Assembly: GCA_963668315.1 (NCBI GenBank)
Contig: OY764216.1
Span: 3,296,001 to 3,360,000 of the forward strand
DNA: 64,000 nt
Source: Spirochaetia bacterium
GTDB taxonomy: Bacteria; Spirochaetota; Spirochaetia; DSM-2461
Direction of reading: 5' to 3'
Shown here piece by piece: positions 11,944-55,378 of this stretch. Position 1 is the first letter of the stretch. The number at the start of each line of letters is the position of its first letter. A model generated the notes under the pieces. That model ran no database searches. It saw only the letters and a list, made by a program, of their open reading frames with translations, and was not told the DNA's origin. Position numbers and translations under genes: made by a program.

Positions 11944-13291
11944 GATAGTGTCCAGCCATGTTCGCAACTTTCCTTTCAAGAAGCCATCAAAATTCCCCAT
12001 TAGGCAGCCTGACCTAATTTAATTCTTTGTTCATCAATCGATTTCTCACTGATATACCGTTTTCCCGAAGCCCAGTCTTCTGAGTATTCAATCAGGTAAC
12101 AACAGACTAGTCTAAGGTAGGAGTCAATACTGGGAAAGATTCCCACAACACGAGATCGTCTACGGATTTCCCGATTCAATCGTTCCAGTTGATTGGTAGA
12201 AGCAGTTTTCCGGCTGTCTATTTCTGAGAATTCATAATACTGAAGAGAGTCTTCTAATCCGTCTTCAAGACAAGTCATGGACTTCGGAAATTGTTCTTCA
12301 AATTCCTCTATAATTCGGTATGCATATTCACGGGCCGATTGGGAGTTCGGTTGATTCCAAATCTGCTTAATTCTGCCGGCAACAGCTTCTTTATCCCTGG
12401 CAGGAAGATGGGACAGGATGTTCCTCATAAAATGGATTTTACAGCGTTGCCAGGAGCAACCGATGAGTTCCTTTCTTATGGCGGCTTGAAGTCCCAGATG
12501 GGCATCAGAGACACAGAGCCAGGCATTTTTAAATCCTCTTGCTTTAAGAGACCTGAACAGTTCGGTATAAGTGCTTTCTGATTCTTCCTGCATTGGTTCA
12601 ACAGCAAGGATTTCTTTGAATCCTTGTGAATTAACACCAGATACAACCATCACAGCCATATTTCTCACTCTTCCGTTATACCGGATCTTTTCATAGAGGG
12701 CATCAACCCAGATGACAGGATATTCTGAATCAAGAGATCGATAGCGGAATTCATCTACCTGTTCATCAAGTCCCTTATTGATTTCAGAGACCTGGCTGGC
12801 TGAAATATTTTCAATGCCCAGACTCATAGCCAATTTCTCAATCTTTCTGGTTGAAACACCGTTGATAAATGCTTCCTGGACAACCTGAATCAGAGCTTGC
12901 TCGGATCTCTTCTTTTCTGTTACAAAGAAGGGAATATATCCGCCTTTTCTGAGCTTGGGGACAAGGAGATACAGTGTTCCAAGACGAGTATCAAATCGGC
13001 GTGGTCGATATCCAGAAAAATGGGTGGATCTTCCCGTAGAATGAGACCCCTTTTGAGCTCCTACTTTATTCGCCGCTTCTATTTCCATAAGCTTTTCCAG
13101 TAGCCATTTCAATAAGCTGAAAATGGGATCCGGTTCCGAAATGAATTGGAGTAGCATTTTTTCCAGATTACCATTATCATTTTCCTTAGCCATCGTTTTC
13201 TTCCTCCATGGTTTTAGTTGTGCATTACCATTCTGGAGAATTCGATGGCTTCTTTCAATAATTAAAATTGCGAACTTGATTGTACGCTATC
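11944..13291 (-). mobile_element. IS256-family element A copy 1 (transposase 12000..13193)
   Basis: 1348 bp, GATAG...CTATC ends, VDALYEK / SDAHLGL / WQRCKIHF motifs; own flanks differ (AATGTCAG / ACTCCAGA). Confidence 0.95.
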
Positions 13292-14056
13292 ACTCCAGAT
13301 CAAATAGTTCAGTTATATAATGATGATAAAGATCATTTCTTACATATTTTAGATAACTTATTTGTCCCTATTTTAGAAGAACTTGAGTATGAAGTCATAA
13401 AACCAATCGCCGAAGGTTCAGAAATAATTCATACTAGAATTATCAATAATTTGATTGAATCAGATTTAGTTTTTTGTGATATGTCTATTTTAAACCCTAA
13501 TGTTTTTTATGAATTAGGGATAAGAACGGCAATTAATAAAAAGGTATGCATTGTAAAGGATGATAAAACCATCAAAATCCCATTTGATACAAGTTTGATA
13601 AATATTTTTACCTATGATTCAATGTTGTCCCACTGGAAAATGGACGAAATCAAGAAGACTTTAAAAGATCATATAATTGCAACAGAAAAGCATACATCAA
13701 ATGCGTTATGGGATATTTTTGGTTCAAAGACACAGAAATTATTAAATTCTGCAGTAGATAATATAAAAAATAAGAATGAAACAGATCCGAATGATCAAAT
13801 AGATCAAGTTAGAGATGGAAAAGAAAATATAGAAGTTGAAATTAAGAAAGAAAAAACAGAAAAAAGAGCTACAGTTTTCCGGGCAAAAGCTCATAAATGT
13901 ACGAGCTGTGGATATAGCTTCTTACTTGATGATAATGACTTTATAATGGCCTCAGCACTTCGAGTTTCAATTTCTGGATTATATAGTCCTATGACTGATA
14001 TTCCTGAATCCAATGTTGTTCGTTGTCCTAAATGTGACAATATTGATGTACTATAA
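13292..14056 (+). pseudogene. 3' part of a cassette gene (nucleoside 2-deoxyribosyltransferase-like fold + C-terminal Zn ribbon); 5' end at 53984..54030
   Basis: SDLVFCDMSILNPNVFYELGIR, IPFD, CTSC...CPKC; joins MKEKTCFIIMPIT-TPDQ in frame. Confidence 0.8.
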
Positions 14057-14058
14057 CC

Positions 14059-14156
14059 GTATAACAATCGCTTGAAGCAGTCAGCCCTATCGTCATGCTT
14101 TTTGCGAGGCAAAAATCACGCCGATGTACGGTCTGCAGCTTAAGCGGGCGTTATGT
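14059..14156 (+). other. attC site
   Basis: GTATAAC ... GTTATGT cores with an imperfect internal palindrome. Confidence 0.85.
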
Positions 14157-16148: not shown

Positions 16149-16244
16149 CAAACATTTGAACGTTGACAGCCCTACTGATCACGGTTTCTGCTTACGCACA
16201 AACCGCGCCAGCTTAACGGTCTGCAAGTTAAATGGGCTTTCTAA
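16143..16244 (+). other. attC site with mutated R' (TTTCTAA)
   Basis: ACATAAC complements GTTATGT at 14150; the expected GTT reads TTT. Confidence 0.8.
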
Positions 16245-16280
16245 AGAATAAAGGTAAGAGTTAAAATAAAAGGGGGAAAT

Positions 16281-17969: not shown

Positions 17970-18074
17970 AACAATAAAATGCACCTGACAGCCCTACTGT
18001 CACAAATACTGCTTAACGCTTCGCGGCAGTATTTGCGCCAGCTTCACGGTCTGCAGGTGATTTTGGCGTTAGCC
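17966..18074 (+). other. attC site
   Basis: TTAGAAC ... GTTAGCC with palindromic arms. Confidence 0.85.
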
Positions 18075-18125
18075 ATATTCAAGAAAAGGGTTGATGATAC
18101 TATCAAATGATACTATCATGATAAA

Positions 18126-19088: not shown

Positions 19089-19191
19089 CAAGCATTTGAA
19101 ACTGACAAATCTTTTTGTCATGCAAATTGCGTTTCGCAATTTACACGCCAAACCCTGCGGGACAGATTTGCAGCTTAAATGGGCGTTATCT
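19083..19191 (+). other. attC site
   Basis: GGCTAAC ... GTTATCT; closely similar to attC at 47450 and 48684. Confidence 0.88.
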
Positions 19192-19240
19192 ATACAAAAG
19201 GTAACAACCATAGACCAACCCTACAATTAGAGAAGGACAT

Positions 19241-30582: not shown

Positions 30583-31060
30583 TGTTAAAATAATTTGGAT
30601 TCCAGAATAATCTGGAAGTTTTGGTCAGGATAATGTGTGATTCAACAGCACCGCAATCGGGGCAACGGTAGCGCTTTATCCAGAGGGCCAGAGGGAATCC
30701 ATAGAAATATCTTGGGACAAATCCGTGACCCCAGAGGCGTATCCCCTGGCAGGAGGGACATCGTCCCGGCTTCTTCCAGGGAAATTCTTTACCAAAGGCT
30801 TGAAGTTTTTCCAAATTTATCCGAATAATAAGTAACAGATTTGTCTCCCTTCGCGGGGGGATTTTCAGTAAGGGAGCAAGTGAACATTTGGTCGTGGGCA
30901 CTGCTCCTTTTTTTATGTTCGGATAAAATGAGAAATGTCTGTTATCTGTTGTAAGAAAAAGTTTAACTCAAAGAGAAATATTCATGGATGTCTGAGGCAG
31001 GATAATGTGAGAAATTACAGTAGTGTGTTTATCTGTTTGGAGAAGAGGAGTCAATTCCTG

Positions 31061-33178: not shown

Positions 33179-33264
33179 AACGTTATTCTATGGTTTCTTT
33201 GTAAGAATGACAAGGAATGAAAGAAAAAAATCAATAAACTAATGTCTATATTTAAACCAGTTTA

Positions 33265-33552
33265 TTATATCCAGTATAGGTTATATAGCTGAACCGGACG
33301 CCGGTTGAATTCGCGGTTCATCTCCTGTTCGTCCAGGCCGTCTGCCGCATGGCTCATATAACGGAGAATTAGACGGGAATGATTGCTGAATAACAGTGAA
33401 ATCCTGTTATTTTCAATAAGAAAGGAAGTCAGGTCCTTTCCCTGAATATAGTCGATATCGCGCTTGATAGTGGAACGGTCTACGTTGAATCGGCGGACCA
33501 GTTCTGACCAGCTCCATCCTTTGTTATTCTCCAGGAGAATCTCTTCAATCAT
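33265..33552 (-). pseudogene. HTH (WYL/DeoR-type) regulator remnant
   Basis: SELVRRFNVDRSTIKRDI helix-turn-helix; no full effector domain. Confidence 0.55.
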
Positions 33553-34281
33553 ATTTATTCGTTAATCTGATCACTTTGACACCTAGATTTTCTACGTCAT
33601 CCTCTTGTATAAGGAGTTTTATGGGCAAATCCAAACATAGGAGAAAAGCCCTTTCTCTGTAAATATAAACCGATGATAAAAAGTCGATTTTTGTACTTTA
33701 GAAAGAATTTATTATCATTTCTTCTAGATTTATTTTTTTCCCTTCTCTAGGGAAAAGGATTAGCCATCGGATAAATGATCAGTCCTGTTGTAGAAATTTT
33801 CATTTTTAAAAGATCATCTATAAAGAGAAAAACCGAGCCTCCTTCTGTCGTGAAAATGAATTTCAAATTTTAGCAGGGGATTTCGCAGAATCCATTGTCC
33901 CATAATATCATGCTGCATTCCGGACATATTACTCCTAGTCGTATATTTGCTGCGGAATAGACACCGTGTTAATTCAGTTAAATAATATCAATATTCATTT
34001 CCAGAGCGTTTTCCATGAAACTGGCCCTTTTTATTCTTACTATCAGCCAGATGTTTATATTAGTAATAAAACACCACATGACAAAACAATAAAAATTGTT
34101 AGGATTTATTCTAACAACCCGAAGTGCTATGATCAGGAGGTCTTTATGGTATCTATACACATAAATAATGCATCGCCTTTTCTGTTCTCAAAAGCGCAAG
34201 TCGGGACCCATCACCACTTTCCCAACGTAAATAATATTAATTAACAATTATACTAATTCTCTTTTAGTACATCCGCATAAA

Positions 34282-35582
34282 GATAGTGTACAATAGTGTC
34301 TGTAAATTAGAAATAAAGGGGGCTTGAAAAAGTTAGCCAATCAGTCTTCGATTAGTTCGACCAAAAACAAAAGAAGGCATCATGACTAACGAGGATTACT
34401 ATACCGTTTTCGATCAAATGATTGAAGAGCTCCAGGCAGATAATCGAGAAGGATTAACAAAGGTCATAAGTTCAATAATGAATTTATCTATGCGGTTAGA
34501 GCAAGAGAAGGCAATCCAAGCCAGTCATTATGAACGGAATGACGATCGCATTGGCCATAGAAACGGGTACAAAAGCAGGAAGATTCGAACTCGTGTAGGT
34601 GAGATCCCTATCGAGATTCCGCAGGTCCGTGGGATGGAATTCTATCCTGGCAGCATTGAAAAAGGGTGCCGCAGCGAAAGGGCGTTGAAAATGGCAATAG
34701 CTCAGATGTATATCCAGGGGGTATCAACTCGCAGAGTAACCAAAATTGTAGAACAGCTCTGCGGCTTCGAAGTTTCCCAATCCCAGGTTTCTGAAGCAAC
34801 CGCACTGCTGGATGAAGAGATTTCTAAGTGGCGGAATCGCCCTCTGGGAGCTTTTCGCTATCTCATTGTGGATGCGACCTATGAAAAAGCTCGTGTGGAT
34901 AGAGCTGTCGTTTCGGCAGCCGTTCTAATTGCTTATGGAGTTGATAATAAGGGAATGAGAAGGGTTCTTGGGATTTCAACAGAACTCAGCGAGGCTGATG
35001 TTCATTGGAGAAAGTTCCTCGCTGGATTGGTTGACCGAGGTTTACATGGAGTCAGAATGATAACTTCAGATGCCCATAGTGGTCTAAAATCTGCAATAGA
35101 GGCTGTTTTTCCTACGGTTCCCTGGCATCGCTGTCAGTTTCATCTCCAGCAGAATGCTTCTCATCACGTTCCCAAGAAGAGCATGGAGAAGGAGGTAGCA
35201 GAAGACATCAGAACTATTTTTAACGCACCCAATGGAGAAGAAGCGAAACGCTTTCTTTCAATGGCTGTTAAAAAATATGAGGAAACGGCGCCCGATCTGA
35301 GTAGCTGGATGGATGAGAATATCCCCGAGTCCCTTACCGTCTTCTCAATGCCAAAGGCTCATTGGCGACGGCTAAGAACTTCAAATTTGGCAGAGCGGCA
35401 GATGAAAGAAATAAAGAGGCGAACAAGGGTAGCCATGATATTTCCAAATAGGAAGTCCGTTGATCGTCTGATCGCGGCTCTGTTAATGGAAATAGATGAG
35501 CAGTGGTTTACAGGTAAAAGATATTTGAATATGGAGACTGATTAACTTTTTCTAATTTTACAGACAAAAGGGTTGCTTTATC
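34282..35582 (+). mobile_element. IS256-family element B copy 1 (transposase 34382..35545)
   Basis: 1301 bp, 8-bp TSD CGCATAAA. Confidence 0.93.
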
Positions 35583-41124: not shown

Positions 41125-42158
41125 TTCCCCGAACAAAGTACCAGAAGAGATTGTTAAAAGGATTATTGAGATCAGGAAGGAGCATTCCTCGTGGGGAGCG
41201 AAGAAGATTCGCTGGCGTTTGGACCAAGATGGAATTTATAATCGGATTCCCGCTCAATCAACCATTTCCATTATCCTTAAGCGAAATAATCTTATTCCGG
41301 AGAGAAAGCGTCATGTACGTGTAGAGAGGCGCTATCCTAAGTTTATAGCCAATGATTGTAATGAAATCTGGAGTGCTGATTACAAGGGAGAATTCAAAAC
41401 CAAGGATAATAAATATTGCTACCCTTTGACTATCTGCGATACCTTCAGTCGCTACATCATTAAGATAAAAGGCCTCTCCCGGCCCAATTATGAGCAGTCT
41501 CAGCCAGTTTTTGAAACTGTCTTTAAAGAATATGGACTCCCTGAACAGTTGCATACCGACAATGGTTCCCCCTTTGCCAACGTCCGTGCCCTGGGGCGTT
41601 ATACGCAATTCTCAGTCTGGCTGATGGAATTAGGAATCCTTCCCGTGTTCAGTGATCCTGCTTCCCCGCAGCAAAATGGAAAACATGAAAGGATGCACCG
41701 GATATTGAAAGCAGAAGCCTGTAAAGAGCCCGGAATCAGTCTTCGAAGTCAGCAGATAAAGTTTAACAAGTTTGCCAGGGAATACAATACAGAGCGACCT
41801 CATGAGTCTCTGGGGATGGTAACGCCTTCTTCAGTTTATGCGAGGTCCAAACGTCCTTATCCTAAGAAAATAGAGCCTTGGGTCTATCCTGCAGAGTATA
41901 AAGTAAGGAATATCTGCAAGAATGGAATTATTAGGGTAGGTAAGGATGACCGTATCTTTGTGGGTACAGCTTTCAAGGAAAAACAACTTGGTTTTGAAGA
42001 TATTGGAGAAGGGATTTACAGGGTTTGGTTTAGAGAATTTCTGCTTGGCTATTTAAATGAACATGAGCTCAAAATCTATGATATACTAGAATATGATTAC
42101 ATCAAAAGGGTGTAAGTGAAGTGGGTAGATATTTGAACACTATGTGATGTTCAATACA
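41125..42158 (+). mobile_element. IS481-family element, 5' truncated (ORF 41219..42115)
   Basis: WSADYKG, HTDNGSPF, QNGKHERMHR; ends ...ACA. Confidence 0.8.
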
Positions 42159-42390
42159 TCAGGGTACATACGAGATATCTACAAAAATACTTGATTAATA
42201 GTTTTTTAGTACAGTGTAAGATTTTATGTCGATTTAAAAAAATTCACTTAGATGAAAGTACGTAATGTAGATGAAATAGAAAATGAATTCTTTAAAAGAT
42301 AAATTTGCGATGTAATATTTAAAGAAAAATGCTATAATTTCTCTAAAATAAAAATAAGAAGAAATTTGAGTAAGAATATAAGGCAACATT

Positions 42391-43179
42391 TTGAAAAGAA
42401 ATATTATTACAGTCATTAAAATATTATCATTTATTATAGTATGGTCAGTTTTTGTTGTAATTATGCCAGAAATGCCAACAAAAAACTCTGCAATTATAAG
42501 ATTGTGGTATGAAATATTCCCACTTTTTTCGACAATTGTAATTACGGTAATTTTCTTAATAATTATTGAAAGAAATAAGCTACATGTAGTAATTTTTAAT
42601 AATTTTATTAAGAATGTTAGTTTAGGTATAATTGTAGGAATAGTATGGTTAGCAATACCATTTTTTATATTATTAGTCACGAATAATATTAACTATGCTA
42701 GTAAAATAAATATTGATTATTTTGCTATATGGGTTCTTGCATGTTTTATAAATGTTGTAATGCAAGAACTGTTGGTAAGAGGTTATATCTACCAAATATT
42801 AAAAACTCAATATAATTGGATAATTGCTATTATTGTCACAACATTAATATTTACCGCTTTGCATGGAGGAGCAATTAATGCAGGTGTTATACCAATATTA
42901 AATGTTATAACTATGAGTGTGATGGCAACATTGTTGATGGAATTAACCGGTACATTATCAGCAACAATTGTAAGTCATTTTGTTTGGAATTTTATAGGCT
43001 CAATAATTTTAGGACAAGTAAGCTTAGCAGACGATTATCCAAAAATGATAAAATTTACATCAAAAAATAATATTTTGACTGGTTGGGATTATGGGCTAGA
43101 AGGTAGTTTATTAGTGACAATAATGAATGTAATCTTGATTATGATTTTTTCTATGGCTATTTATAAGAAAAACAGATAA
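42391..43179 (+). CDS. CPBP/CAAX (Abi) family membrane protease (cassette)
   Basis: QELLVRG, FTALH, HFVWN, GLEGS; multiple TM segments. Confidence 0.82.
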   Translation: MKRNIITVIKILSFIIVWSVFVVIMPEMPTKNSAIIRLWYEIFPLFSTIVITVIFLIIIERNKLHVVIFNNFIKNVSLGIIVGIVWLAIPFFILLVTNNINYASKINIDYFAIWVLACFINVVMQELLVRGYIYQILKTQYNWIIAIIVTTLIFTALHGGAINAGVIPILNVITMSVMATLLMELTGTLSATIVSHFVWNFIGSIILGQVSLADDYPKMIKFTSKNNILTGWDYGLEGSLLVTIMNVILIMIFSMAIYKKNR

Positions 43180-43312
43180 AACATTAATAGTTAAAGAGAT
43201 AATAGCGATTAATAAAAAAATGAAAGAAAATCCCAATGGAAGTGAAGCTTGAGGTATCGTAACAACAGAAGAAGTCAATAATAGAGGAAATGAAGAATAA
43301 GAAAAGAGTTCT

Positions 43313-43408
43313 TGATAACAAAGTTTTGCAGCAGTCTTGGCTATGTCACGATTTTTGCAAAGCAAAAATAGCGCCAAATACGCCAAGCAGCTGAAAACGG
43401 CGTTATAT
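43313..43408 (+). other. attC site
   Basis: TGATAAC ... GTTATAT. Confidence 0.85.
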
Positions 43409-43456
43409 AGTTAACGGAATGAAAAAGATAATTTTGATCGAGTAAGGAGATGAATA

Positions 43457-44089
43457 ATGGAACTAGAAAGAGATACACTTACTAGACTAATTCAGTACTT
43501 AAAAGATCATGGCTATCCTGAAGATAGTTTTGCTGTAGAGTATCAAGTCGGTCGCTATCGAGCAGATTTGGTTATTATCGATCCAAAAACTAAAATACCT
43601 CTTATAATATTTGAAATTAAATCTCAGAAAAATAAAAACACTATTGATTTCGGAAAGAATCAACTCACAAAGTTGTCCTCAAACATTAAAGGTGATATAC
43701 CACTTTACCTAGTCTTTCCAAAAAATGAAGAACCATACTTTGAAATAGAGAAAATTGTCATTAAAGATGACAATATTGCAATTGAGAAAGATGTCCCAAT
43801 AACATCTCTGCAATATAAATATCAACGTAATTCGAGGATATCTGAAAAAACGAATGAAAAAGAAAATGATAAAGTAGAAGCAATAGATAAATTATCAATA
43901 GTATGTTGGATTCTAGGATCATTTGTTTTAATTCTGGCAATTGTTAATAAATTTACTCAATTCAATCTTGAAGCTACAGACATTAGTTTATTAGGTGTAT
44001 CAATTGGACTTTTCATAATTCCATTTGCCAGCAAGATAAAAATTCTTGGCATGGAGTTTGAAAGGTTAAAAAAGGATAAGAATGAATAA
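43457..44089 (+). CDS. PD-(D/E)XK (HsdR-N-like) domain + 2 C-terminal TM helices
   Basis: GYPEDSFAVEY, RADL, FEIK; hydrophobic C-terminus ending KILGMEFER. Confidence 0.7.
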   Translation: MELERDTLTRLIQYLKDHGYPEDSFAVEYQVGRYRADLVIIDPKTKIPLIIFEIKSQKNKNTIDFGKNQLTKLSSNIKGDIPLYLVFPKNEEPYFEIEKIVIKDDNIAIEKDVPITSLQYKYQRNSRISEKTNEKENDKVEAIDKLSIVCWILGSFVLILAIVNKFTQFNLEATDISLLGVSIGLFIIPFASKIKILGMEFERLKKDKNE

Positions 44090-46419
44090 TGATATTAACA
44101 AAAAATGATTATTATGATTTAGAAAAATTTTTTCTTGAATATAAAAGTAATGAATATTATTACATGGATATAGATCCTATTAACTATTTTGGAGAAAAAC
44201 CATATTTACTTTTCCCAAGTCATTTCTGCGAATGTAGAAAGCTTCTCTTTGACGAATATTTATGGAATATAGAATATGATTGGGAAAAAGATGATGATAA
44301 TACAATTTTTGAAGAGACTAAAACATATAAGAAGATTAAGAAGGCAATTATTGATAGTGTCCAGCCATGTTCGCAACTTTCCTTTCAAGAAGCCATCAAA
44401 ATTCCCCATTAGGCAGCCTGACCTAATTTAATTCTTTGTTCATCAATCGATTTCTCACTGATATACCGTTTTCCCGAAGCCCAGTCTTCTGAGTATTCAA
44501 TCAGGTAACAACAGACTAGTCTAAGGTAGGAGTCAATACTGGGAAAGATTCCCACAACACGAGATCGTCTACGGATTTCCCGATTCAATCGTTCCAGTTG
44601 ATTGGTAGAAGCAGTTTTCCGGCTGTCTATTTCTGAGAATTCATAATACTGAAGAGAGTCTTCTAATCCGTCTTCAAGACAAGTCATGGACTTCGGAAAT
44701 TGTTCTTCAAATTCCTCTATAATTCGGTATGCATATTCACGGGCCGATTGGGAGTTCGGTTGATTCCAAATCTGCTTAATTCTGCCGGCAACAGCTTCTT
44801 TATCCCTGGCAGGAAGATGGGACAGGATGTTCCTCATAAAATGGATTTTACAGCGTTGCCAGGAGCAACCGATGAGTTCCTTTCTTATGGCGGCTTGAAG
44901 TCCCAGATGGGCATCAGAGACACAGAGCCAGGCATTTTTAAATCCTCTTGCTTTAAGAGACCTGAACAGTTCGGTATAAGTGCTTTCTGATTCTTCCTGC
45001 ATTGGTTCAACAGCAAGGATTTCTTTGAATCCTTGTGAATTAACACCAGATACAACCATCACAGCCATATTTCTCACTCTTCCGTTATACCGGATCTTTT
45101 CATAGAGGGCATCAACCCAGATGACAGGATATTCTGAATCAAGAGATCGATAGCGGAATTCATCTACCTGTTCATCAAGTCCCTTATTGATTTCAGAGAC
45201 CTGGCTGGCTGAAATATTTTCAATGCCCAGACTCATAGCCAATTTCTCAATCTTTCTGGTTGAAACACCGTTGATAAATGCTTCCTGGACAACCTGAATC
45301 AGAGCTTGCTCGGATCTCTTCTTTTCTGTTACAAAGAAGGGAATATATCCGCCTTTTCTGAGCTTGGGGACAAGGAGATACAGTGTTCCAAGACGAGTAT
45401 CAAATCGGCGTGGTCGATATCCAGAAAAATGGGTGGATCTTCCCGTAGAATGAGACCCCTTTTGAGCTCCTACTTTATTCGCCGCTTCTATTTCCATAAG
45501 CTTTTCCAGTAGCCATTTCAATAAGCTGAAAATGGGATCCGGTTCCGAAATGAATTGGAGTAGCATTTTTTCCAGATTACCATTATCATTTTCCTTAGCC
45601 ATCGTTTTCTTCCTCCATGGTTTTAGTTGTGCATTACCATTCTGGAGAATTCGATGGCTTCTTTCAATAATTAAAATTGCGAACTTGATTGTACGCTATC
45701 CAATTATTGATACAGATATTTTTATAGAATCAATAGGTGTATCAGAAAAAAAAGATTTTATGAATCGTGATATTGAGTATGCATTCCAAAATTCAAGAAC
45801 CGGTTCATGGTATTGGCTCGATGGTATTCAAAATGATGAATTACTTCTTCATGGATATGATTCTAGAAGAATTGAACTTGAAGAAATTCTATCATCAATA
45901 TCAAAGAATATTAAAAATCCAGATTCTAATGCTAACTCAATTATTTATCCAAGATCTTATATTGATCTAAATTATCGAATTATTAATAATTACAAGGAAT
46001 GTACCGAAAAAACACTTTTAGATCTCCATAACGGAAAGAAATCACTATTAGATCTAAATCCATTTGAGTTTGAAGATATTATCGCAGAACTATTAGAAAA
46101 TATTGGTCTAGAAATTTTCAAAACACCCAAAACAAATGATGGAGGCAGAGATCTAGTAGCTAGAGGAGAAATTGCTCCAGGATTTCCAGTCAATATTGCA
46201 GTTGAAGTGAAAAGAAAACCTATCGTTAATATTGGTGATTTAAGAAGTGCATTATATGCAAATAGAAATTTTCCGAAACTTATGTTTGTAACTGCTGGTC
46301 AATTTTCTGCTGGTATATATAAAAGCAGAGAATTAGAAGAAAATTTTTATAGGTTAGATCTAAGAGATGGAATAGCAATTTCTCAATTAATTAGTGGGTA
46401 CTTTGGAGATAAAAAATAA
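44089..46419 (+). pseudogene. Mrr-like restriction endonuclease interrupted by IS256 (44089..44352 + 45709..46419, 324 aa)
   Basis: PFEFEDIIAELL, NDGGRDL, VEVKR; in frame after removing the IS and one TSD copy. Confidence 0.82.
44353..45700 (-). mobile_element. IS256-family element A copy 3 (transposase 44409..45602)
   Basis: 1348 bp, 8-bp TSD CAATTATT. Confidence 0.95.
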
Positions 46420-46421
46420 CT

Positions 46422-46529
46422 ATATAACAATGAATTGAAGTTGAATTTCCTATGTCATAAATCCTGCTTTTCTGCTGCGCAGGCAGGATTTTCGCCATTT
46501 ACGGAAATCAACTTAATTCGGCGTTCTAA
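46422..46529 (+). other. attC site
   Basis: ATATAAC ... GTTCTAA; TAACTATATAAC complements the cassette start GTTATATAGTTA. Confidence 0.88.
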
Positions 46530-46612
46530 AGACAAAAAATCATTATCGAAGAGATAAAAGAAGTAAGACAGATAGTAGAAATCATTTTGACCTGATCGAA
46601 TGATGATGGAGT

Positions 46613-47395
46613 TTGGAAATGAGTGTCATCGTTGAGAAAGAATATATAAAAGAAATTCCAATTATAAAAGTATTTAATTCACACTCTATTAAACCATTAC
46701 CAGTAATTCTTATGTTACATGGAGCAACCGGGAGAAAAGAGGATAATCTAGATAGAGCAAAGTGGTTTGCGAATGAAGGTTTTTTTATTGTATTGTTCGA
46801 TGCTTATGAGCATGGAGAATTAAAGTCAAATAACAGAAACGAGATTGAAGATATTGAAAAAATATTTAAATTATATTTAGAAACATCTAAATATATAACA
46901 ACTATAATAAATTATTTTATGACACAAAATAGTATTGGTGATTTTAGAAAAGTAGGATTAATTGGTTTTTCAATGGGAGCACATACTGTTTACTATCATA
47001 TTTTAAAAGAACGACATAGTAATATAAAAATTGCTATAGCAGTGATAGGTTCACCGGTATGGCGAAGTTTTGTAAAACGTTTTGTTTCTATGATTATAAA
47101 TCTAAAAACATCTTATAATGATATTATTATCAAAGAAAAAGAAGAAAAAATTTCAGAAATCCAACCAATAAAGTTTATCGATAATATTCAGGAATTACCA
47201 TTAATAATGCTCAATGGTGAGTTAGATGATAAAATACCAATACAAGAAATTGAAGATTCATATAATAAATTGAAACTGAGATATAGAGAAAAAAGTAAAA
47301 TTGAGTATATAAAATATAAAAACACAGGTCATAAAGTTACAGATAATATGATAGAAACTGCATTGAATAGGTTTAAAAAGTATTTATTTATATAG
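46613..47395 (+). CDS. Alpha/beta hydrolase (esterase) cassette
   Basis: LHG, GFSMG nucleophile elbow, GELDDKIP, TGHKV. Confidence 0.85.
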   Translation: MEMSVIVEKEYIKEIPIIKVFNSHSIKPLPVILMLHGATGRKEDNLDRAKWFANEGFFIVLFDAYEHGELKSNNRNEIEDIEKIFKLYLETSKYITTIINYFMTQNSIGDFRKVGLIGFSMGAHTVYYHILKERHSNIKIAIAVIGSPVWRSFVKRFVSMIINLKTSYNDIIIKEKEEKISEIQPIKFIDNIQELPLIMLNGELDDKIPIQEIEDSYNKLKLRYREKSKIEYIKYKNTGHKVTDNMIETALNRFKKYLFI

Positions 47396-47449
47396 TGATA
47401 TTGAATTAAAGATTTACCATAGCTGTGGAGCAATGGCATGATAAATGCT

Positions 47450-47558
47450 TTAGAACAAGCTTTTGAAGTTGTCAAATCTTTTTGTCATGTAAATTGCTTT
47501 TCGCAATTTACACGCCAAACCCTACGGGTCAGCTTTGCAACTTAAAAGGGCGTTAGCC
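47450..47558 (+). other. attC site
   Basis: TTAGAAC ... GTTAGCC. Confidence 0.88.
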
Positions 47559-47575
47559 AGACAGTAAAAGGAAGG

Positions 47576-48673
47576 GTGAAATTAATGATGAATGAGGATA
47601 TAATTCTAATTCCCAATTTTCCATTCTCGAAAAAATATATTGATCAAATTATTTCAATCCTAAATTATCATGATCCATTTGTAATATTAGCAATTGATGA
47701 CGAAGCAAAAAAATACTCTATTTTTCATAACGCCTACACAAAAGATGTATTAGAATATAATTTTATTGCTCATATCGATCGAAATATAATTACCTATGCT
47801 TTTCAATTCATAAAATCTGAAAACAGAACGATCAAACAACAACAACTTGCTCTATCTTGTTTTCTATACTTAAATTTGCTTGAAGCAAAATATGAATTAT
47901 CTCAACCTGTATTAGAATTATTACATAGTACAGAGAATGCTAATAGAACGAAAAATGAAATTATATCATGGAATCAATTTATCGATTTTCTGCACTCGGA
48001 TAATATTAAGTATATTCTTGATTTCATTTTTGAAGGTATAAATAAATTACCTAAATTAAGTGAAATAACAGATAAAGAAAAGCTACAAATTAAGCAATTA
48101 GATATTTCTGATATTGAACCGCCCATAAGTTGGTATTCTGCCTATATTCATTTATTGAAACTATCAATTATTCAAAAAGAGAATAAAGGATCAATCGAAA
48201 GTATAAGTGAATATTTTAATTGGATAATTACAGAATATAAATCTGATGCTTCTTGTATATATTTTTCGTTTATATTCTTCTCGAATAAACATGAATATAA
48301 AAAAATATATAATGAGAAAACTAGAATTATGAATTTGGCTTGGGATCTTTCACACGTTACAAATTGGTTTCGAGATTCTATTAAACATATAAATGATGAA
48401 AAGATTATTGATATTCTTGTTACTCATGATGGAATGTTGAAGGATATTGCAAATCTCTTATCAGAAGAGTGTAAAATATCAGCAAATGCAGGACGAAAGA
48501 AATGTAAATTTTTGGAATTATACTATTCAAGAAATGATGTAGATAGAATAAATGAATTGTATAATTCCTATGTAAATAATTTAAAATCTGACAATCGAAC
48601 CCCAAAAACCATTAATGATATTGAACAAAAGAAAGGTATAATTGCAGATTTAGAATTAGAGTTATTTGGATAA
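47576..48673 (+). CDS. Hypothetical protein (cassette), possible PIN-like fold
   Basis: 365-aa ORF filling the cassette; IDRNII, NLAWDL, LVTHDGML. Confidence 0.65.
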   Translation: MKLMMNEDIILIPNFPFSKKYIDQIISILNYHDPFVILAIDDEAKKYSIFHNAYTKDVLEYNFIAHIDRNIITYAFQFIKSENRTIKQQQLALSCFLYLNLLEAKYELSQPVLELLHSTENANRTKNEIISWNQFIDFLHSDNIKYILDFIFEGINKLPKLSEITDKEKLQIKQLDISDIEPPISWYSAYIHLLKLSIIQKENKGSIESISEYFNWIITEYKSDASCIYFSFIFFSNKHEYKKIYNEKTRIMNLAWDLSHVTNWFRDSIKHINDEKIIDILVTHDGMLKDIANLLSEECKISANAGRKKCKFLELYYSRNDVDRINELYNSYVNNLKSDNRTPKTINDIEQKKGIIADLELELFG

Positions 48674-48683
48674 TTTATTGGCT

Positions 48684-48792
48684 GGCTAACAAGCTTTTGA
48701 AGTTGTCAAATCTTGTTGTCATGTAAATTGCTATTCGCAATTTACACGCCAACCCCTTCGGGACAGCTTTGCAACTTAAAAGGGCGTTATAC
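48684..48792 (+). other. attC site
   Basis: GGCTAAC ... GTTATAC. Confidence 0.88.
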
Positions 48793-48911
48793 GAATTCTT
48801 GAATAATATACGAACATATTCTAATGAAAAAAAGATAAAAAAAATTCCAAGAAAGAAAAATGAAAAAATAAGATAAAAACAAAGAATAGAAGAAAAAAAA
48901 GGCAAGAATCA

Positions 48912-48940
48912 TTGACTTACACAATCCAATGTGTGAAAAT
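48912..48940 (+). promoter_or_regulatory. Putative TA promoter/operator
   Basis: TTGACT-17 nt-GAAAAT with an ACACA...TGTGT inverted repeat in the spacer. Confidence 0.5.
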
Positions 48941-48964
48941 GTAAATATAAAGGAGCAAATATCT

Positions 48965-49165
48965 ATGGCAACGAATTTAGCAATTGAAGATGAGCTTCTA
49001 ATCGAAGCTCAAAAAATAGCAGGATTTAGAACAAAAAAAGAAACTGTAAATTCTGCCCTAAAAGAATTTATTGAAAGAAGAAAACAGATTGAAATAGTCG
49101 ATCTATTTGGATCAATAGACTATGAAGAAGATTATGATTATAAATCTGAACGAAATAGAAAATGA
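48965..49165 (+). CDS. vapB: VapB-type antitoxin
   Basis: MATNLAIEDELL...TKKETVNSALKEFI; AGGAG RBS; overlaps the toxin. Confidence 0.85.
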   Translation: MATNLAIEDELLIEAQKIAGFRTKKETVNSALKEFIERRKQIEIVDLFGSIDYEEDYDYKSERNRK

Positions 49166-49587
49166 ATATATTAGTTGATACTTCAGTTTGGTCCCTTGCA
49201 TTTAGGAAAAAGACTTTAACAAATGAAGAAAATAAAATAGTCAATGAATTAAAAGAATTAATATTTGAGAAAAGAGTTCAAATCATAGGCCCAATTCGTC
49301 AAGAATTATTGTCCGGGATTAAAAATCCTATGACTTTTGAAATATTGAAAAATAAAATGCATGCTTTTGAAGATGAAATCCTAGAATCATATGATTATGA
49401 AAAAGCAGCAGAAATCAATAATTTATGTAGAAGTAAAGGAATTCAAGGTTCTCATATTGATTATTTGATAGCATCAGCAGCGATAAATAGAAATATTGCA
49501 ATATTTACAACAGACAAAGATTTCAATAATTATTCTTCCGTAATAGAAATGAAACTTCATTCAATAAGAAAAGAAATAGAAGAATAA
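49162..49587 (+). CDS. vapC: VapC PIN-domain toxin
   Basis: ILVDTSVW, QELLSG, IDYLIA, TTDKDF. Confidence 0.9.
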   Translation: MNILVDTSVWSLAFRKKTLTNEENKIVNELKELIFEKRVQIIGPIRQELLSGIKNPMTFEILKNKMHAFEDEILESYDYEKAAEINNLCRSKGIQGSHIDYLIASAAINRNIAIFTTDKDFNNYSSVIEMKLHSIRKEIEE

Positions 49588-49619
49588 AGAAAGACCATTT
49601 AAAGAAAAAAAAGAAAATC

Positions 49620-49717
49620 GTATAACAATGAATTGGAGCCGAATTGCCTATGTCACATTTCTTGCTATTCGCAAGAAATCCGCCATGGACGGCAATCAGC
49701 TCAATTCGGCGTTCTAT
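49620..49717 (+). other. attC site
   Basis: GTATAAC ... GTTCTAT. Confidence 0.85.
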
Positions 49718-50150
49718 AGACTAGGGTATGTTCATTTATCATCCTTGTAAAATTGGTCTTTGACATGCATTCAGTTTTCTGCCTCCGGGTGGGAGAATAA
49801 TTTTGGGCTTTAAACCCCAGTGGGAGAATCGCGTTGGAGAACTCAGGGCCCCCCCGGAGGGAGATCCTCTCTGGTTTTTTTTCATAGTATTCTGTGCTGT
49901 CTACGCGACCCTGGGGAAAGAATAGAAATATGGAATTTAACCCCAGGGATGAAGAATGTGGAACGAACCTCCGGTGGAAGATTATTTTTTGGTTTTTTTT
50001 CTTTGTATTTCCTTATACTGGGGGTATGATTAATTGCTTCAGCTGCAGCAAAGGGATGGGCAATAATGGTGTTATATTGAAAACAGTATAATTCTATTAA
50101 AGTTGTAGATTTGCTGTATTCAATACTACATTCGTCTGCTATCCATTTTA

Positions 50151-50675
50151 ATGAAACCATTTTCGGAGATTAATATGAAACGTGTAATTATTATCTTATT
50201 TGTAAGTTTAATCTTATCAAATTTATTCTCAGAAGAAATTGTCACGTTAAATGATGGAAGAAAAATCATTGTCTATGATGATCATACCTGGATTGAATAC
50301 TCAGATAATAATCTATCAATTGAAGATATAGTAAATAAAAATAAACAATATTTACGTTCAGATATTTCTGCTTCACAAGATGAGGTTTCAGTTGCTTGTG
50401 AGATGTATGAGCAAGGATGGACATATACAATGCCAAGACCGAAAAGTGCCAAAGCAGCTTGGGGTGTTTCAGATGGACGAACAACTTGGTATAACGGTTG
50501 GTGGTATAATTCAAAAACAAATTTATACTCGGATTCAACACCAGAAAAATCATCAAGTGGACTTTTCTTAGGAGATGGGCAAAATAGCTCACATACATGG
50601 CGTAATGGGGGGGCACCTAGACGACCAGATATTTTTATGTTCTTGCTCTCTAGCTCAGGTGGTCCACGCTTTTAG
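50151..50675 (+). CDS. Hypothetical secreted protein (cassette)
   Basis: Signal peptide MKRVIIILFVSLILSNLFS; VTLNDGRKIIVYDDHTW. Confidence 0.7.
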   Translation: MKPFSEINMKRVIIILFVSLILSNLFSEEIVTLNDGRKIIVYDDHTWIEYSDNNLSIEDIVNKNKQYLRSDISASQDEVSVACEMYEQGWTYTMPRPKSAKAAWGVSDGRTTWYNGWWYNSKTNLYSDSTPEKSSSGLFLGDGQNSSHTWRNGGAPRRPDIFMFLLSSSGGPRF

Positions 50676-50703
50676 ATAATTATCATAATGTTTGAGGTAA
50701 GCA

Positions 50704-51507
50704 ATGATAACGCGAAAAAGAATCTTTAAGATAATTGAAAAAGCAGAGAATAATGATATCGCAAGCAAGATATTTGATATTTCCATTATCATCTTAATTG
50801 TACTAAATGTTTTTGCAATAATTTTACAATCATTCAAAGATATCGCAGATTCCTATTATGGCTTGTTTAGATTCTTTGAAATATTCTCGGTTATAATTTT
50901 TTCTATAGAAATTTTATTAAGAATAATTACTTGTGACTTAAAGTTCCCGGAAAAAAGATGGTTTCTTTCATTCATTAAATATTCTTTCTCATTCATGGCT
51001 ATAATTGATCTGTTGGCTATTTTACCGTTTTATCTTCCTATCTTAATTCCGATTGATCTAAGGTTTTTAAGAGTATTACGATTAACGAGAATCCTTCGAA
51101 TATTAAAAGTCAATCGATATAGTAAATCCTTAGATTTGATTGGAAAAGTATTATATAAAAAGAAATATGAATTATTAGTCACAATTTTCATAACATCAAT
51201 TCTGTTATTGTTAGCTTCATCGATGATGTATTATTTAGAAAATGATGCCCAGCCTGATTCATTTCCCAATATCATCGCATCATTTTGGTGGGCAATTGCT
51301 ACCCTTACGACTGTAGGATATGGTGATGTTTATCCCATTACTATTCTTGGTAAAATAACTAGCGGTATTATAGCATTGTTAGGAATTGGACTAGTTGCTC
51401 TGCCTACAGGTATAATAAGTTCTGGTTTCATGGAGATAATTTCAGAAGAAAAAGAAAAGGATAATGATTATAAGTATTGTCCTGATTGTGGACGAAGATT
51501 GGATTAA
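50704..51507 (+). CDS. Voltage-gated K+ channel / ion transporter
   Basis: S4 RFLRVLRLTRILRILK, TTVGYGD filter, C-terminal CPDC. Confidence 0.9.
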   Translation: MITRKRIFKIIEKAENNDIASKIFDISIIILIVLNVFAIILQSFKDIADSYYGLFRFFEIFSVIIFSIEILLRIITCDLKFPEKRWFLSFIKYSFSFMAIIDLLAILPFYLPILIPIDLRFLRVLRLTRILRILKVNRYSKSLDLIGKVLYKKKYELLVTIFITSILLLLASSMMYYLENDAQPDSFPNIIASFWWAIATLTTVGYGDVYPITILGKITSGIIALLGIGLVALPTGIISSGFMEIISEEKEKDNDYKYCPDCGRRLD

Positions 51508-51512
51508 TAGCT

Positions 51513-51618
51513 ATAGAACAAAGTTTTGCTACTGTCAATTTTTCTGGCACGTATTTTGTTTTCACAAAATAAGCGCCAGCCCTTCGGGACAAAATTGCAG
51601 CAGAAAACGGCGTTATAT
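51513..51618 (+). other. attC site
   Basis: ATAGAAC ... GTTATAT. Confidence 0.85.
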
Positions 51619-51635
51619 GTATTAAGGAGTTTTAA

Positions 51636-52370
51636 GTGAACCCAATTGCAAGAAATGCGATGAATAAAACACTGTATAAATACTTAAGTGCAGAAAATGC
51701 TCTGAAAACATTAGAAACCCTTAAAATAAAAATAACAAAACCTAAAGAATTAAATGATCCATATGAAATAGTACCATCATTATCAAATGTCTCAGAAAAA
51801 TTAAAAAAAATACTTATAGACCTTACAAGTGAGATGAAAAAAAGGACAGCAATTTACTGCCTGTCTGGAAATGAATTAAATAACTTAATGTGGGCACATT
51901 ATGCGAACAATTATTCAGGTATTTGTATTGGATTTAATTCAAAATTGCTAGAAAAAATTAATTTATATGAAGTGATATATGATGTTAGTCGGCCGACAAT
52001 CGATGAAAAAATCATTCAAAATAGAATAAGAGATGAAGCTATGAAGTACATTTTGAAATTAATGCTTACAAAAAGTTATAAATGGAAAGATGAAAAAGAA
52101 TTTCGTTTTCTTTTTGATTTAGATGAAGAAGAAATCACAAGAACTATTATTTTAGAAAAGATTAATATTATATGTATTAATGAGATTATAATAGGACCTC
52201 GAATTAGTATAGACGATCTTAAAGAATTAAAATCCATATTAGAAAAACCAATTTTTTCCCATATAGAAGTTTATGGGCTAGAATTCTTTGATAATACTTC
52301 ATATGAATTAAAAAAATATCAAATACTCCTAAATGATTTAATTAATTATAAAAATAAACTTGATATATAA
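51636..52370 (+). CDS. DUF2971 family protein (cassette)
   Basis: LYKY, LNDPYE, LMWAHYA...GICIGF, KSYKWKDEKEFR. Confidence 0.8.
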   Translation: MNPIARNAMNKTLYKYLSAENALKTLETLKIKITKPKELNDPYEIVPSLSNVSEKLKKILIDLTSEMKKRTAIYCLSGNELNNLMWAHYANNYSGICIGFNSKLLEKINLYEVIYDVSRPTIDEKIIQNRIRDEAMKYILKLMLTKSYKWKDEKEFRFLFDLDEEEITRTIILEKINIICINEIIIGPRISIDDLKELKSILEKPIFSHIEVYGLEFFDNTSYELKKYQILLNDLINYKNKLDI

Positions 52371-53238
52371 TAAAGAGGTTTTAGATATTATGAATAATCA
52401 AAGAAATACGTTGAAAAATCTTTTTTCTAGTCTAATTGGAGTAATACGCTCTTTATATAAATTGTATCCTTTTTTTGTTTTAACAATTTTAATTATTGGT
52501 TTTTATTTCACTTTAGGAATTTCAAGGACAAATGTATATACAGCATTTTCTATTGTTATCATTCTTTTTGTATCAATATTAATATATGCAAGTTCAAAAA
52601 GGTTCGGAGAAGCTTCATTATCATTAGCAGCTGGTATTTTATCTGTCTTTTCAATTAATTGGAATCCTAAATTATTTATTGCTTTTTCAATCACTTGGCT
52701 TTGCTTTGCATGCTTTTCTATCATGATTGCATCAATTAGGATTGCATCCGAGGTTGAAAATATTATGAGAATGACAGCAATAAAAATTGATTCTAATAAT
52801 TACAAAAAGGTTGAAAAAAAATTAGAACAAATAAGGAAAAATAAAGCAAATTTGCTTGTTAGCCCAATCGAAGCATGCCGAGCTCAATTAATTCTTGCTT
52901 ATAATAATATTCCAATTTCTTCTTTTTCTACAGCAATGAATAGAATTGAACAGCTAAAGGTAATTACAGGATTAGAATATAAAATATGCACAAACTTTGT
53001 AATTGATCTTTTGAATTTATCAAAAGAAATATTGATTTTTAATCAATGTTTTGACAAATTCTTTATTCTCATAAGAGATTCACCATATGTTCCAAATGAA
53101 ATGTTTGTATTTATAAAAAGAACAAAATATTATGTTTTAAGCGGAGATTACACGTTGGATGAATATTTAAAAAAACTAAAAGATAAATTGATAAAAGGTT
53201 TTAATCTTGATGAACTAGAGAGAACATTAATGGATTAA
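52360..53238 (+). CDS. Hypothetical membrane protein (about 4 TM + soluble domain)
   Basis: Hydrophobic N-terminal half; same cassette as DUF2971. Confidence 0.65.
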   Translation: MIYNKEVLDIMNNQRNTLKNLFSSLIGVIRSLYKLYPFFVLTILIIGFYFTLGISRTNVYTAFSIVIILFVSILIYASSKRFGEASLSLAAGILSVFSINWNPKLFIAFSITWLCFACFSIMIASIRIASEVENIMRMTAIKIDSNNYKKVEKKLEQIRKNKANLLVSPIEACRAQLILAYNNIPISSFSTAMNRIEQLKVITGLEYKICTNFVIDLLNLSKEILIFNQCFDKFFILIRDSPYVPNEMFVFIKRTKYYVLSGDYTLDEYLKKLKDKLIKGFNLDELERTLMD

Positions 53239-53245
53239 TGAATAC

Positions 53246-53343
53246 ATATAACAAAGTCTTGAAGCGGAATTAGCCACTTGTCACAGAAACTGCTTGCGCA
53301 TTTTCTGCGCCAATTGTCTAATCAGCTTAAGACGACGTTATAC
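53246..53343 (+). other. attC site
   Basis: ATATAAC ... GTTATAC; AATACATATAAC complements GTTATATGTATT at 51612. Confidence 0.88.
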
Positions 53344-53358
53344 GGATAAGGGGTAAAT

Positions 53359-53982
53359 GTGGAATTAGAAATGGAAACAACAAATAGATTTATCGACTAT
53401 TTAATAATGCATGGATATCCCGAATCAAGTATTGCGGTTGAATATGAAATAGGAAAAAACACTCGTGTAGATATAGCCATATTAGATACAAAGACTAATC
53501 TCCCAATTCAACTTTTTGAGCTAAAGTCGAGAAAAAACCAACAAATGATTGAAATGGGAAAGAGACAAATTTCTAAATATAAACAGTTATTAGGAAATAA
53601 AAATATTCCTACATATCTAGTCTTTCCTGAATCTATAAAGCCATATTTTTCAATTCTAGATATTAGTGATACAGAAAATGAAAATACAATGTCTTCATTA
53701 AATTATAAAGGTCAAAAGAATTCCCGAATTGCTGAAGAAGTAAGAGAGATAAAGCATAAAAAAGAGCGGACTATAGATAATTTTAAAATTATATGTTGGA
53801 TTCTAGCAGTAATTGTTTTATTTATAGCGTTATTAAATAAATATTGTTCTTTTAATATTTCTGCAATTGATTTAACATTGCTTGGTTTAATTATTGGTTT
53901 AGTATTGATTCCCTTTGCAAGTAAACTAAAAATACTGGGAGTTGAATTTGAAAGACTAACTGAAACAGAAATTAAAGGTTAG
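53359..53982 (+). CDS. PD-(D/E)XK (HsdR-N-like) + 2 TM protein, paralog of 43457..44089
   Basis: GYPESSIAVEY, RVDI, FELK, KILGVEFER. Confidence 0.7.
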   Translation: MELEMETTNRFIDYLIMHGYPESSIAVEYEIGKNTRVDIAILDTKTNLPIQLFELKSRKNQQMIEMGKRQISKYKQLLGNKNIPTYLVFPESIKPYFSILDISDTENENTMSSLNYKGQKNSRIAEEVREIKHKKERTIDNFKIICWILAVIVLFIALLNKYCSFNISAIDLTLLGLIIGLVLIPFASKLKILGVEFERLTETEIKG

Positions 53983-53983
53983 A

Positions 53984-54030
53984 ATGAAAGAAAAAACTTG
54001 TTTTATAATAATGCCTATTACAACTCCAGA
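53984..54030 (+). pseudogene. 5' end of the gene whose remainder is at 13300..14056
   Basis: MKEKTCFIIMPITTP; ends in ACTCCAGA. Confidence 0.8.
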
Positions 54031-55378
54031 GATAGTGTCCAGCCATGTTCGCAACTTTCCTTTCAAGAAGCCATCAAAATTCCCCATTAGGCAGCCTGAC
54101 CTAATTTAATTCTTTGTTCATCAATCGATTTCTCACTGATATACCGTTTTCCCGAAGCCCAGTCTTCTGAGTATTCAATCAGGTAACAACAGACTAGTCT
54201 AAGGTAGGAGTCAATACTGGGAAAGATTCCCACAACACGAGATCGTCTACGGATTTCCCGATTCAATCGTTCCAGTTGATTGGTAGAAGCAGTTTTCCGG
54301 CTGTCTATTTCTGAGAATTCATAATACTGAAGAGAGTCTTCTAATCCGTCTTCAAGACAAGTCATGGACTTCGGAAATTGTTCTTCAAATTCCTCTATAA
54401 TTCGGTATGCATATTCACGGGCCGATTGGGAGTTCGGTTGATTCCAAATCTGCTTAATTCTGCCGGCAACAGCTTCTTTATCCCTGGCAGGAAGATGGGA
54501 CAGGATGTTCCTCATAAAATGGATTTTACAGCGTTGCCAGGAGCAACCGATGAGTTCCTTTCTTATGGCGGCTTGAAGTCCCAGATGGGCATCAGAGACA
54601 CAGAGCCAGGCATTTTTAAATCCTCTTGCTTTAAGAGACCTGAACAGTTCGGTATAAGTGCTTTCTGATTCTTCCTGCATTGGTTCAACAGCAAGGATTT
54701 CTTTGAATCCTTGTGAATTAACACCAGATACAACCATCACAGCCATATTTCTCACTCTTCCGTTATACCGGATCTTTTCATAGAGGGCATCAACCCAGAT
54801 GACAGGATATTCTGAATCAAGAGATCGATAGCGGAATTCATCTACCTGTTCATCAAGTCCCTTATTGATTTCAGAGACCTGGCTGGCTGAAATATTTTCA
54901 ATGCCCAGACTCATAGCCAATTTCTCAATCTTTCTGGTTGAAACACCGTTGATAAATGCTTCCTGGACAACCTGAATCAGAGCTTGCTCGGATCTCTTCT
55001 TTTCTGTTACAAAGAAGGGAATATATCCGCCTTTTCTGAGCTTGGGGACAAGGAGATACAGTGTTCCAAGACGAGTATCAAATCGGCGTGGTCGATATCC
55101 AGAAAAATGGGTGGATCTTCCCGTAGAATGAGACCCCTTTTGAGCTCCTACTTTATTCGCCGCTTCTATTTCCATAAGCTTTTCCAGTAGCCATTTCAAT
55201 AAGCTGAAAATGGGATCCGGTTCCGAAATGAATTGGAGTAGCATTTTTTCCAGATTACCATTATCATTTTCCTTAGCCATCGTTTTCTTCCTCCATGGTT
55301 TTAGTTGTGCATTACCATTCTGGAGAATTCGATGGCTTCTTTCAATAATTAAAATTGCGAACTTGATTGTACGCTATC
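54031..55378 (-). mobile_element. IS256-family element A copy 4 (transposase 54087..55280)
   Basis: 1348 bp; left flank ACTCCAGA equals the right flank of copy 1. Confidence 0.95.

Follow-up and report, generated by a model that had tools for sequence, protein, structure and literature searches.

Predicted Nuclease Genes in Two Integron Cassettes

We analyzed a stretch of 64,000 nucleotides from a Spirochaetia bacterium (hereafter the window; C1:3296001-3360000 of a 5.62-Mb genome assembled as one contig), in which two integron cassettes each begin with a small gene for a predicted membrane-anchored nuclease. Gene A (43457..44089, + strand) codes for 210 amino acids, in which an HsdR-type PD-(D/E)XK domain (approximately residues 1-110) is followed by a helical stalk and, toward the C-terminus, by two predicted membrane helices. 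Gene B (53359..53982, + strand, GTG start) codes for 207 amino acids and is a second member of the same family, here designated nuclease-2TM (nuclease with two transmembrane helices). The two proteins share 101 of 206 residues (49% identity, E 5e-60), in agreement with a preliminary description of this DNA in which they had been recognized as homologs with two transmembrane helices each (hydrophobic segments at 146-164 and 176-194 in A, and at 141-159 and 169-187 in B). Each gene begins 15-48 nt past an attC site on the + strand, located at 43313..43408 for cassette A (hairpin z -5.35; found by both scan and profile) and at 53246..53343 for cassette B (hairpin z -6.44). As had also been described, each gene heads its cassette and is closely followed by a second gene, with a 1-nt overlap in cassette A and a 1-nt gap in cassette B. 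Genes A and B are themselves intact, unlike both of these partners.

The window contains 11 attC sites (scan and profile), and the cassette array is AT-rich. The four attC sites that bound cassettes A and B fold as bottom-strand hairpins (z -5.0 to -6.4 versus shuffles), and 10 of 10 consecutive cassettes, A and B included, start with bases complementary to the inverse core of their own attC. No integron integrase was found beside the window arrays. Since the only IntI above the TIGR02249 cut-off is located 162 kb before the window, at an array of its own, the window arrays are attC clusters without an integrase, which have been fragmented by insertion sequences (IS).

A Family of Putative HsdR-Type Nucleases with Two Predicted Membrane Helices

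A profile search for this family returned 600 representatives at E<=0.001, including 131 at E<=1e-30. Nearly all of the best 150 matches were 200-240 amino acids long and matched from end to end. Proteins A and B scored 24.6 and 25.2, respectively, against the Pfam domain HSDR_N_2, whose cut-off is 25 bits. The catalytic residues of A are D37, E53 and K55, accompanied by Q69; the catalytic D and the (D/E)xK motif are present in both proteins, and the three catalytic positions are jointly intact in 119 of 133 aligned homologs. Q69 is found in 102 of the 133, and the tyrosine of the QxxxY motif, which was described for type I HsdR (PMC2475608), in 67 (replaced by F in 18); the motif is complete in B.

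In the predicted model (mean pLDDT 80), residues 1-110 form an alpha/beta domain, residues 120-167 a long helix and residues 173-190 another helix; a short beta hairpin is also present. For residues 1-130, the best fold match was the type IIG enzyme BpuSI (Z 9.6, root-mean-square deviation 3.1, 119 residues aligned), and HsdR 3h1t was matched with Z 9.0, a deviation of 4.2 and 120 residues aligned; the best Foldseek E value was 1.8e-3. Two hydrophobic segments were predicted in 128 of 136 full-length homologs, separated by a loop with a median length of 9 residues. Because lysine and arginine were more abundant in the flanks than in this loop (124 of 125 two-helix members), both the nuclease domain and the C-terminal tail are predicted to be cytoplasmic, with the short loop on the outside. 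The earlier proposal of a PD-(D/E)XK protein with two membrane helices is thus supported by the motif, the predicted fold and the predicted helices.

Both halves of the protein are under purifying selection, with dN/dS values of 0.08-0.21 where they could be computed (7 pairs). Taken at the level of sequence and model, the product is probably an HsdR-type PD-(D/E)XK nuclease with an intact catalytic motif, and cleavage activity is predicted. A helicase motor domain is absent from the 210-residue protein. Neither A nor B matched PADLOC-DB 2.0.0 (2023) or NCBIfam 20, and at most 3 of 133 family members matched any PADLOC model, consistent with the earlier remark that no named system could be recognized. 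In an atlas search, the nearest cluster carried the generic label HsdR N-terminal, and a search with the C-terminal half of the protein gave no match. Several longer members (P0082, P0096, P0100, P0110 and P0132) have low-complexity C-terminal tails, and in some of them the catalytic lysine is changed.

Occurrence and Phylogeny

The family is rare, being found in 2/401, 1/38, 3/201 and 1/251 genomes in four sets, each count including the genome at the center of the set. In phylogenetic analysis, A grouped with the homolog at locus L023 (57%), and B was placed among rows that include the single-gene cassettes L014 and L026. An approximately unbiased (AU) test on a 30-row tree rejected A and B as sisters (p-AU 0.005); a larger tree of 110 rows was built as a quick tree only. 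The two genes had previously been called paralogous: their homology stands, at 49% identity, but a local duplication is ruled out by the AU test, and each cassette was probably acquired on its own.

Some of the homologs also reside in arrays of the attC type. These include L015, L019 and L028, in records titled Formimonas warabiya and Alkaliphilus sp. (Bacillota), where tyrosine-recombinase-like frames occur nearby. The attC sites of L014, from a record titled Oscillospiraceae, resemble those of the window.

Gene Neighborhoods of the Family

The preliminary description had interpreted cassettes A and B as a candidate module in which a conserved nuclease gene is combined with a swappable partner, a Mrr-like nuclease in one case and a deoxyribosyltransferase-like protein in the other. 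We examined the neighborhoods of 37 outside loci, from which three C-terminal fragments (L022, L043 and L044, without a profile match) and seven duplicates (L012, L031, L033, L035, L036, L041 and L055) were dropped, leaving 27 distinct loci. At 18 of these the gene has no coupled downstream gene: it is directly followed by an attC at 6 loci (including L028), by a frame on the opposite strand at 9 and by a same-strand frame more than 100 nt away at 3. Five homologs (L014, L015, L019, L026 and L027) form single-gene cassettes with an attC on both sides and complementary cores, among which the hairpins of L019 are weakest (z ~ -2.3). Profiles of the two partner families matched at none of the 27 loci (best E 0.18; the neighbors of the closest partner homologs, P0284 and P0165-P0168, lie outside this survey), and in searches run without a positive control these families were also unmatched in five genomes holding the nuclease gene. 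Conversely, the nuclease family was present at none of 84 deoxyribosyltransferase-like loci, a result of limited weight as these loci are mostly distant and redundant.

A two-gene system, in which the membrane nuclease would be the invariable part (sensor or anchor) and its neighbor a swappable effector, would agree with the organization of cassettes A and B, each a genuine two-gene unit whose core sites match and whose genes are closely spaced. It would also agree with the remaining 9 of the 27 loci, where a same-strand gene, in several cases of defense type, starts within 50 nt downstream. However, these nine genes are of eight kinds, including HamA of a complete Hachiman system, GmrSD, PDC-S11 (twice, at related loci) and a uracil-glycosylase-like gene, and some of them belong to systems that are complete on their own (HamAB, GmrSD). 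The intact nuclease site would also be unexpected in a pure sensor. In addition, as two-gene cassettes are common in the window (6 of 11, or 4 of 9 without A and B, one of these four with a 202-nt gap), the presence of partners in cassettes A and B is unsurprising. As a general rule, the swappable module is ruled out by the lack of either partner family at the 27 loci, the 18 uncoupled loci and the five single-gene cassettes, and we regard a two-gene system as very improbable.

Association with Restriction-Modification and Defense Genes

Although most homologs occur uncoupled, which largely matches the outcome that the preliminary description had named as refuting the module, their neighbors are not random and lean toward restriction-modification and defense genes. 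At 8 of the 27 loci, the gene lies 0-2 genes after hsdS or a type IIG/ISP gene: directly after hsdS at L021, L030, L034, L040 and L054, one or two genes after it at L029 and L039, and directly after a IIG/ISP gene at L046. These placements occur at about six places of the quick tree, with L030, L040 and L054 forming one clade. Because the genomes checked contain just 1-3 hsdS genes each (three genomes), such placement appears to be far above chance; in genome G508, the gene follows the sole hsdS found. Further loci adjoin a Hachiman HamAB, PDC-S11, GmrSD or patatin gene. The setting is likewise defense-rich within the genome of the window, where other cassettes contain CBASS, SIR2-HerA and Dsr1-like genes.

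One explanation for this association is that the protein guards type I systems, backing up the Hsd complex and being switched on when a phage blocks restriction, with the cassette copies borrowing the system of their host. PrrC, which is tied to EcoprrI, provides a precedent for such an arrangement, and both the eight placements and the HsdR-like nuclease domain are consistent with it. However, no hsdS match was found in two genomes that contain the nuclease gene, that of the window and G401, and therefore the gene does not need hsdS. The five single-gene cassettes and the clustering of three of the operon-linked genes in one clade also argue against a guard. Finally, in three operons read by eye, the neighboring HsdR is full length and retains its own N-terminal nuclease motif, which also rules out a split HsdR whose nuclease is supplied in trans. 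A guard function is, in our estimation, improbable.

The other explanation lies outside defense. The protein could be a membrane-bound nuclease that trims or degrades taken-up DNA, could serve nucleotide salvage, or could be the product of a mildly selfish mobile gene that accumulates where integration is frequent, for instance in cassette arrays or at the ends of restriction-modification operons. Its rare and patchy occurrence would fit such a role, as would the housekeeping neighbors at several loci and the lack of a PADLOC family. On the other hand, the nuclease is predicted to face the cytoplasm, eight loci are at restriction-modification genes and more at other defense genes, and patchiness of this degree would be unusual for a housekeeping function. 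We consider a role of this kind unlikely, though with some plausibility.

Proposed Function and Comparison with Known Systems

The explanation that we favor, with somewhat more confidence than doubt, is that genes A and B belong to a family of stand-alone, one-gene, membrane-tethered defense nucleases. The HsdR-type nuclease domain would face the cytoplasm and be tethered to the inner membrane by the two C-terminal helices, where it would cut incoming phage or plasmid DNA. Since the protein has no specificity domain, motor or cognate methylase, we propose that the host is protected by the nuclease being held at the membrane, as was shown for SNIPE. Cutting of DNA at its site of entry is modestly preferred over release or activation of the nuclease followed by destruction of host DNA and abortive infection.

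Several observations weigh against this reading. The case for defense is one of guilt by association, and plainly housekeeping genes are the neighbors at L011, L013, L025 and L037. The arrays of the window also carry genes for a CAAX protease, a hydrolase and an ion channel, and integron cassettes hold many non-defense genes. No family member was detected in plasmids searched with gene A or in viral contigs searched with query A1. Protein A retains only the Q of the QxxxY motif, without the tyrosine. A single-gene function is also challenged by the nine loci with a close downstream gene, by L023, the nearest relative of A, where a frame cut by the contig end begins 11 nt downstream, and by L030, where a Mrr_cat gene with a different architecture lies 141 nt downstream. 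A DNA-binding or phage-sensing domain like that of SNIPE, which could aim the cutting, is not evident; abortive killing after activation therefore retains some probability.

The closest functional parallel to the proposed defense nuclease is SNIPE (also PD-lambda-1), a single-gene system whose nuclease is on the cytoplasmic side of the inner membrane and which has no methylase (PMC13190303). According to the same report, SNIPE becomes toxic through its catalytic activity when the anchor is removed, and the catalytic mutant loses defense (PMC13190303). The nuclease-2TM family resembles SNIPE in consisting of a single gene, in its membrane anchor with a cytoplasmic nuclease (here by prediction) and in the lack of a methylase. 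In contrast to SNIPE, which has an N-terminal single-pass helix, a DUF4041 domain and a C-terminal GIY-YIG nuclease, the family combines a PD-(D/E)XK domain at the N-terminus with two helices toward the C-terminus, all within approximately 210 residues. Neither GIY-YIG nor DUF4041 was among the matches of A or B, or among the 25 of 31 families shown for alignment. The family is not a member of SNIPE; no homology was found, and the resemblance would be one of analogy.

With regard to the nuclease domain, the closest relatives are type I HsdR and type IIG enzymes (HSDR_N_2; PDB 3h1t, 2w00 and 3s1s), with which the family shares the predicted fold, the D...ExK core and, to varying completeness among its members, a QxxxY-like helix. 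Unlike these enzymes, it has no helicase motor, methylase or specificity domain and carries a predicted membrane anchor instead. Apart from its supplementary domain tables, one survey lists HSDR_N_2 just as a type I endonuclease group (PMC3424549). The location of A and B in cassettes is reminiscent of BRiCs, phage-resistance integron cassettes about a third of which have membrane helices and among which two-gene and related-pair cassettes occur (10.1101/2024.07.02.601719); the passages of that report covered here, tables and supplements aside, mention no nuclease with two C-terminal helices. In the literature searched, an HsdR-type nuclease with two C-terminal membrane helices was undescribed, although the supplements of defense-gene catalogues could list the family.

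Partner Genes and Their Disruption by IS256

Partner A starts with an ATG at 44089, which gives the 1-nt overlap with gene A. Its 5' part (44089..44352, + strand, 88 codons) is 56% identical to the N-terminus of an intact homolog, P0284. It is followed by an IS256-type element of 1348 nt (44353..45700, - strand) flanked by an 8-nt target duplication, and then by the 3' part (45701..46419, + strand), which is 74% identical to P0284 and contains a Mrr_cat domain (Pfam PF04471, E 6.9e-11). When read through the element, the gene is a frame of 324 amino acids, 69% identical end to end to P0284, with the Mrr_cat domain at the C-terminus. The previous assignment of this partner as a Mrr-like nuclease therefore holds, and the domain is one that it shares with Mrr-like type IV nucleases. 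The cassette is closed by an attC at 46422..46529 (+ strand, hairpin z -4.97), with an inverse core complementary to the bases that open the cassette at 43403.

Partner B starts at 53984, leaving the 1-nt gap after gene B. Only 47 nt (53984..54030, + strand; 15 codons plus 2 nt, matching the N-terminus of the intact homolog P0165) precede an IS256 copy at 54031..55378 (- strand), which one contig enters by 29 nt. The remainder of the gene is approximately 40 kb away at 13292..14056 (+ strand), directly after another IS256 copy (11944..13291, - strand), and is followed by the attC that closes cassette B (14059..14156, + strand, hairpin z -5.90). Three observations join the two parts. First, the 8-nt duplication on the left of the copy at 54031 is also found on the right of the copy at 11944, the only cross-match among nine copies examined. 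Second, the inverse core of the attC at 14059 is complementary to the bases that open cassette B (53338), a test that is modest on its own, as the core heptamer of this cassette occurs 5/33 in the genome. Third, the read-through is open and yields 267 amino acids, 53% identical end to end to P0165. The displaced part encodes a nucleoside 2-deoxyribosyltransferase (NDT)-like domain and a C-terminal CxxC...CxxC predicted to form a zinc ribbon. The earlier identification of this partner is retained insofar as the domain is deoxyribosyltransferase-like (Pfam PF05014, E 5e-4, below the curated cut-off) and the zinc ribbon is predicted, but most of the gene lies at 13292-14056, outside the interval 43457-53982 given there. 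NDT-like effectors are also known from type II retrons (PMC7736814). However, cassette B contains no reverse transcriptase, and partner B ends in the predicted zinc ribbon, not in the winged helix described there.

The flanks, target duplications and read-through frames confirm that both partners were disrupted by IS256. Short contigs support the IS junctions at 44353, 45700 and 54031 and include no IS-free allele, while being compatible with both rearrangement and misassembly; contigs from two runs reach 27-28 nt into the element at 44353-45700 from either side. A contig joint between 43407 and 46442 was dismissed as a repeat artefact, since it does not coincide with the attC crossover and one of its sides spans 22 letters. 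An origin of the two-gene cassettes by fusion through loss of an attC is unlikely, as the core sites match and the genes overlap or nearly touch. The insertions had been taken as a hint of a fitness cost, for which they are weak evidence. This IS256 is present in 14 copies in the genome, four of them within the window; other copies occupy an attC and another cassette gene of the main array, and an IS3 disrupts sspE and a further attC. Because IS256 and IS3 insertions are common here, broken partners are expected from the local background. The intact partner homologs P0284, P0165 and P0167 matched no PADLOC model at 1e-10. We consider it likely that the Mrr-like and deoxyribosyltransferase-like partners are independent defense-type genes that were captured in the same cassette.

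Other Features of the Window and Genome

Two IS3 copies split sspE and enclose the displaced cassette block (13292-19238). This gene belongs to a phosphorothioation cluster with matches to SspB, SspC, SspD and SspE (3552-11530 and 20520-21320), preceded by a cysteine-desulfurase-like gene. A partial copy of the start of a Fic cassette (14158-14564), 95% identical to it, lies near C1:3160514 in the main integron array, and the window cassettes are therefore linked to the main integron. Other cassette genes with PADLOC matches are PDC-S31 (DUF2971; 51636-52370), which is followed by a gene for a 292-residue hydrophobic protein without a known family, and AbiU/AIPR (16281-17969). A non-coding, GC-richer segment with short inverted repeats (49820-50100) opens the cassette holding 50151-50675, and a similar stretch is located in the main array near C1:3153660; it had no Rfam match. 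Rfam searches as a whole returned nothing, and a promoter scan performed no better than on shuffles.

Contig depth in two runs of one sample (X1/X2) was uneven along the array: 47/143 at 30906-34308, a minimum of 22.7/82.9 at 42130-44380, which holds gene A, and 54.5/212, 76/277, 84/291 and 88.5/278 beyond 44380 toward gene B (to 54059). This may hint that many molecules lack the left part of the array, contig depth not being equivalent to the share of cells.

Elsewhere in the genome, a complete CBASS of four genes (cyclase, E1-E2, JAB and a SAVED-endonuclease effector; C1:4639524-4644201, L142) lies between two attC sites, spanning approximately 4.9 kb as a single cassette, with an OLD-like ATPase gene upstream. 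Additional examples are a SIR2-HerA pair sharing one cassette (C1:4868491-4871680, L143) and a Dsr1-like gene of 1278 amino acids (3136859-3140695, L144). The latter precedes the first attC of the main integron, and a PDC-S34 match is found further along.

Implications

Our broadest proposal, which we put forward tentatively and consider doubtful in its full form, is that these genes represent a one-gene immune family of bacteria and methanogenic archaea, in which a free-standing HsdR nuclease domain on a membrane hairpin may cut DNA as it crosses the membrane. As natural single-gene cassettes exist, the family is easy and cheap to test, and the candidate is the single gene and not a two-gene module. 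SNIPE is the only characterized membrane-tethered anti-phage nuclease that we met in the literature search. If the proposal is true, the family would be an independent invention of the location-based discrimination of self from non-self used by SNIPE, in which the domain order is reversed and the nuclease has another fold; within restriction operons, the protein would add a second layer that is motor-free and blind to modification. A second, unrelated design of 210 residues would then show that incoming DNA has repeatedly come to be distinguished from the chromosome by confining a nuclease to the membrane, and would extend this strategy to archaea.

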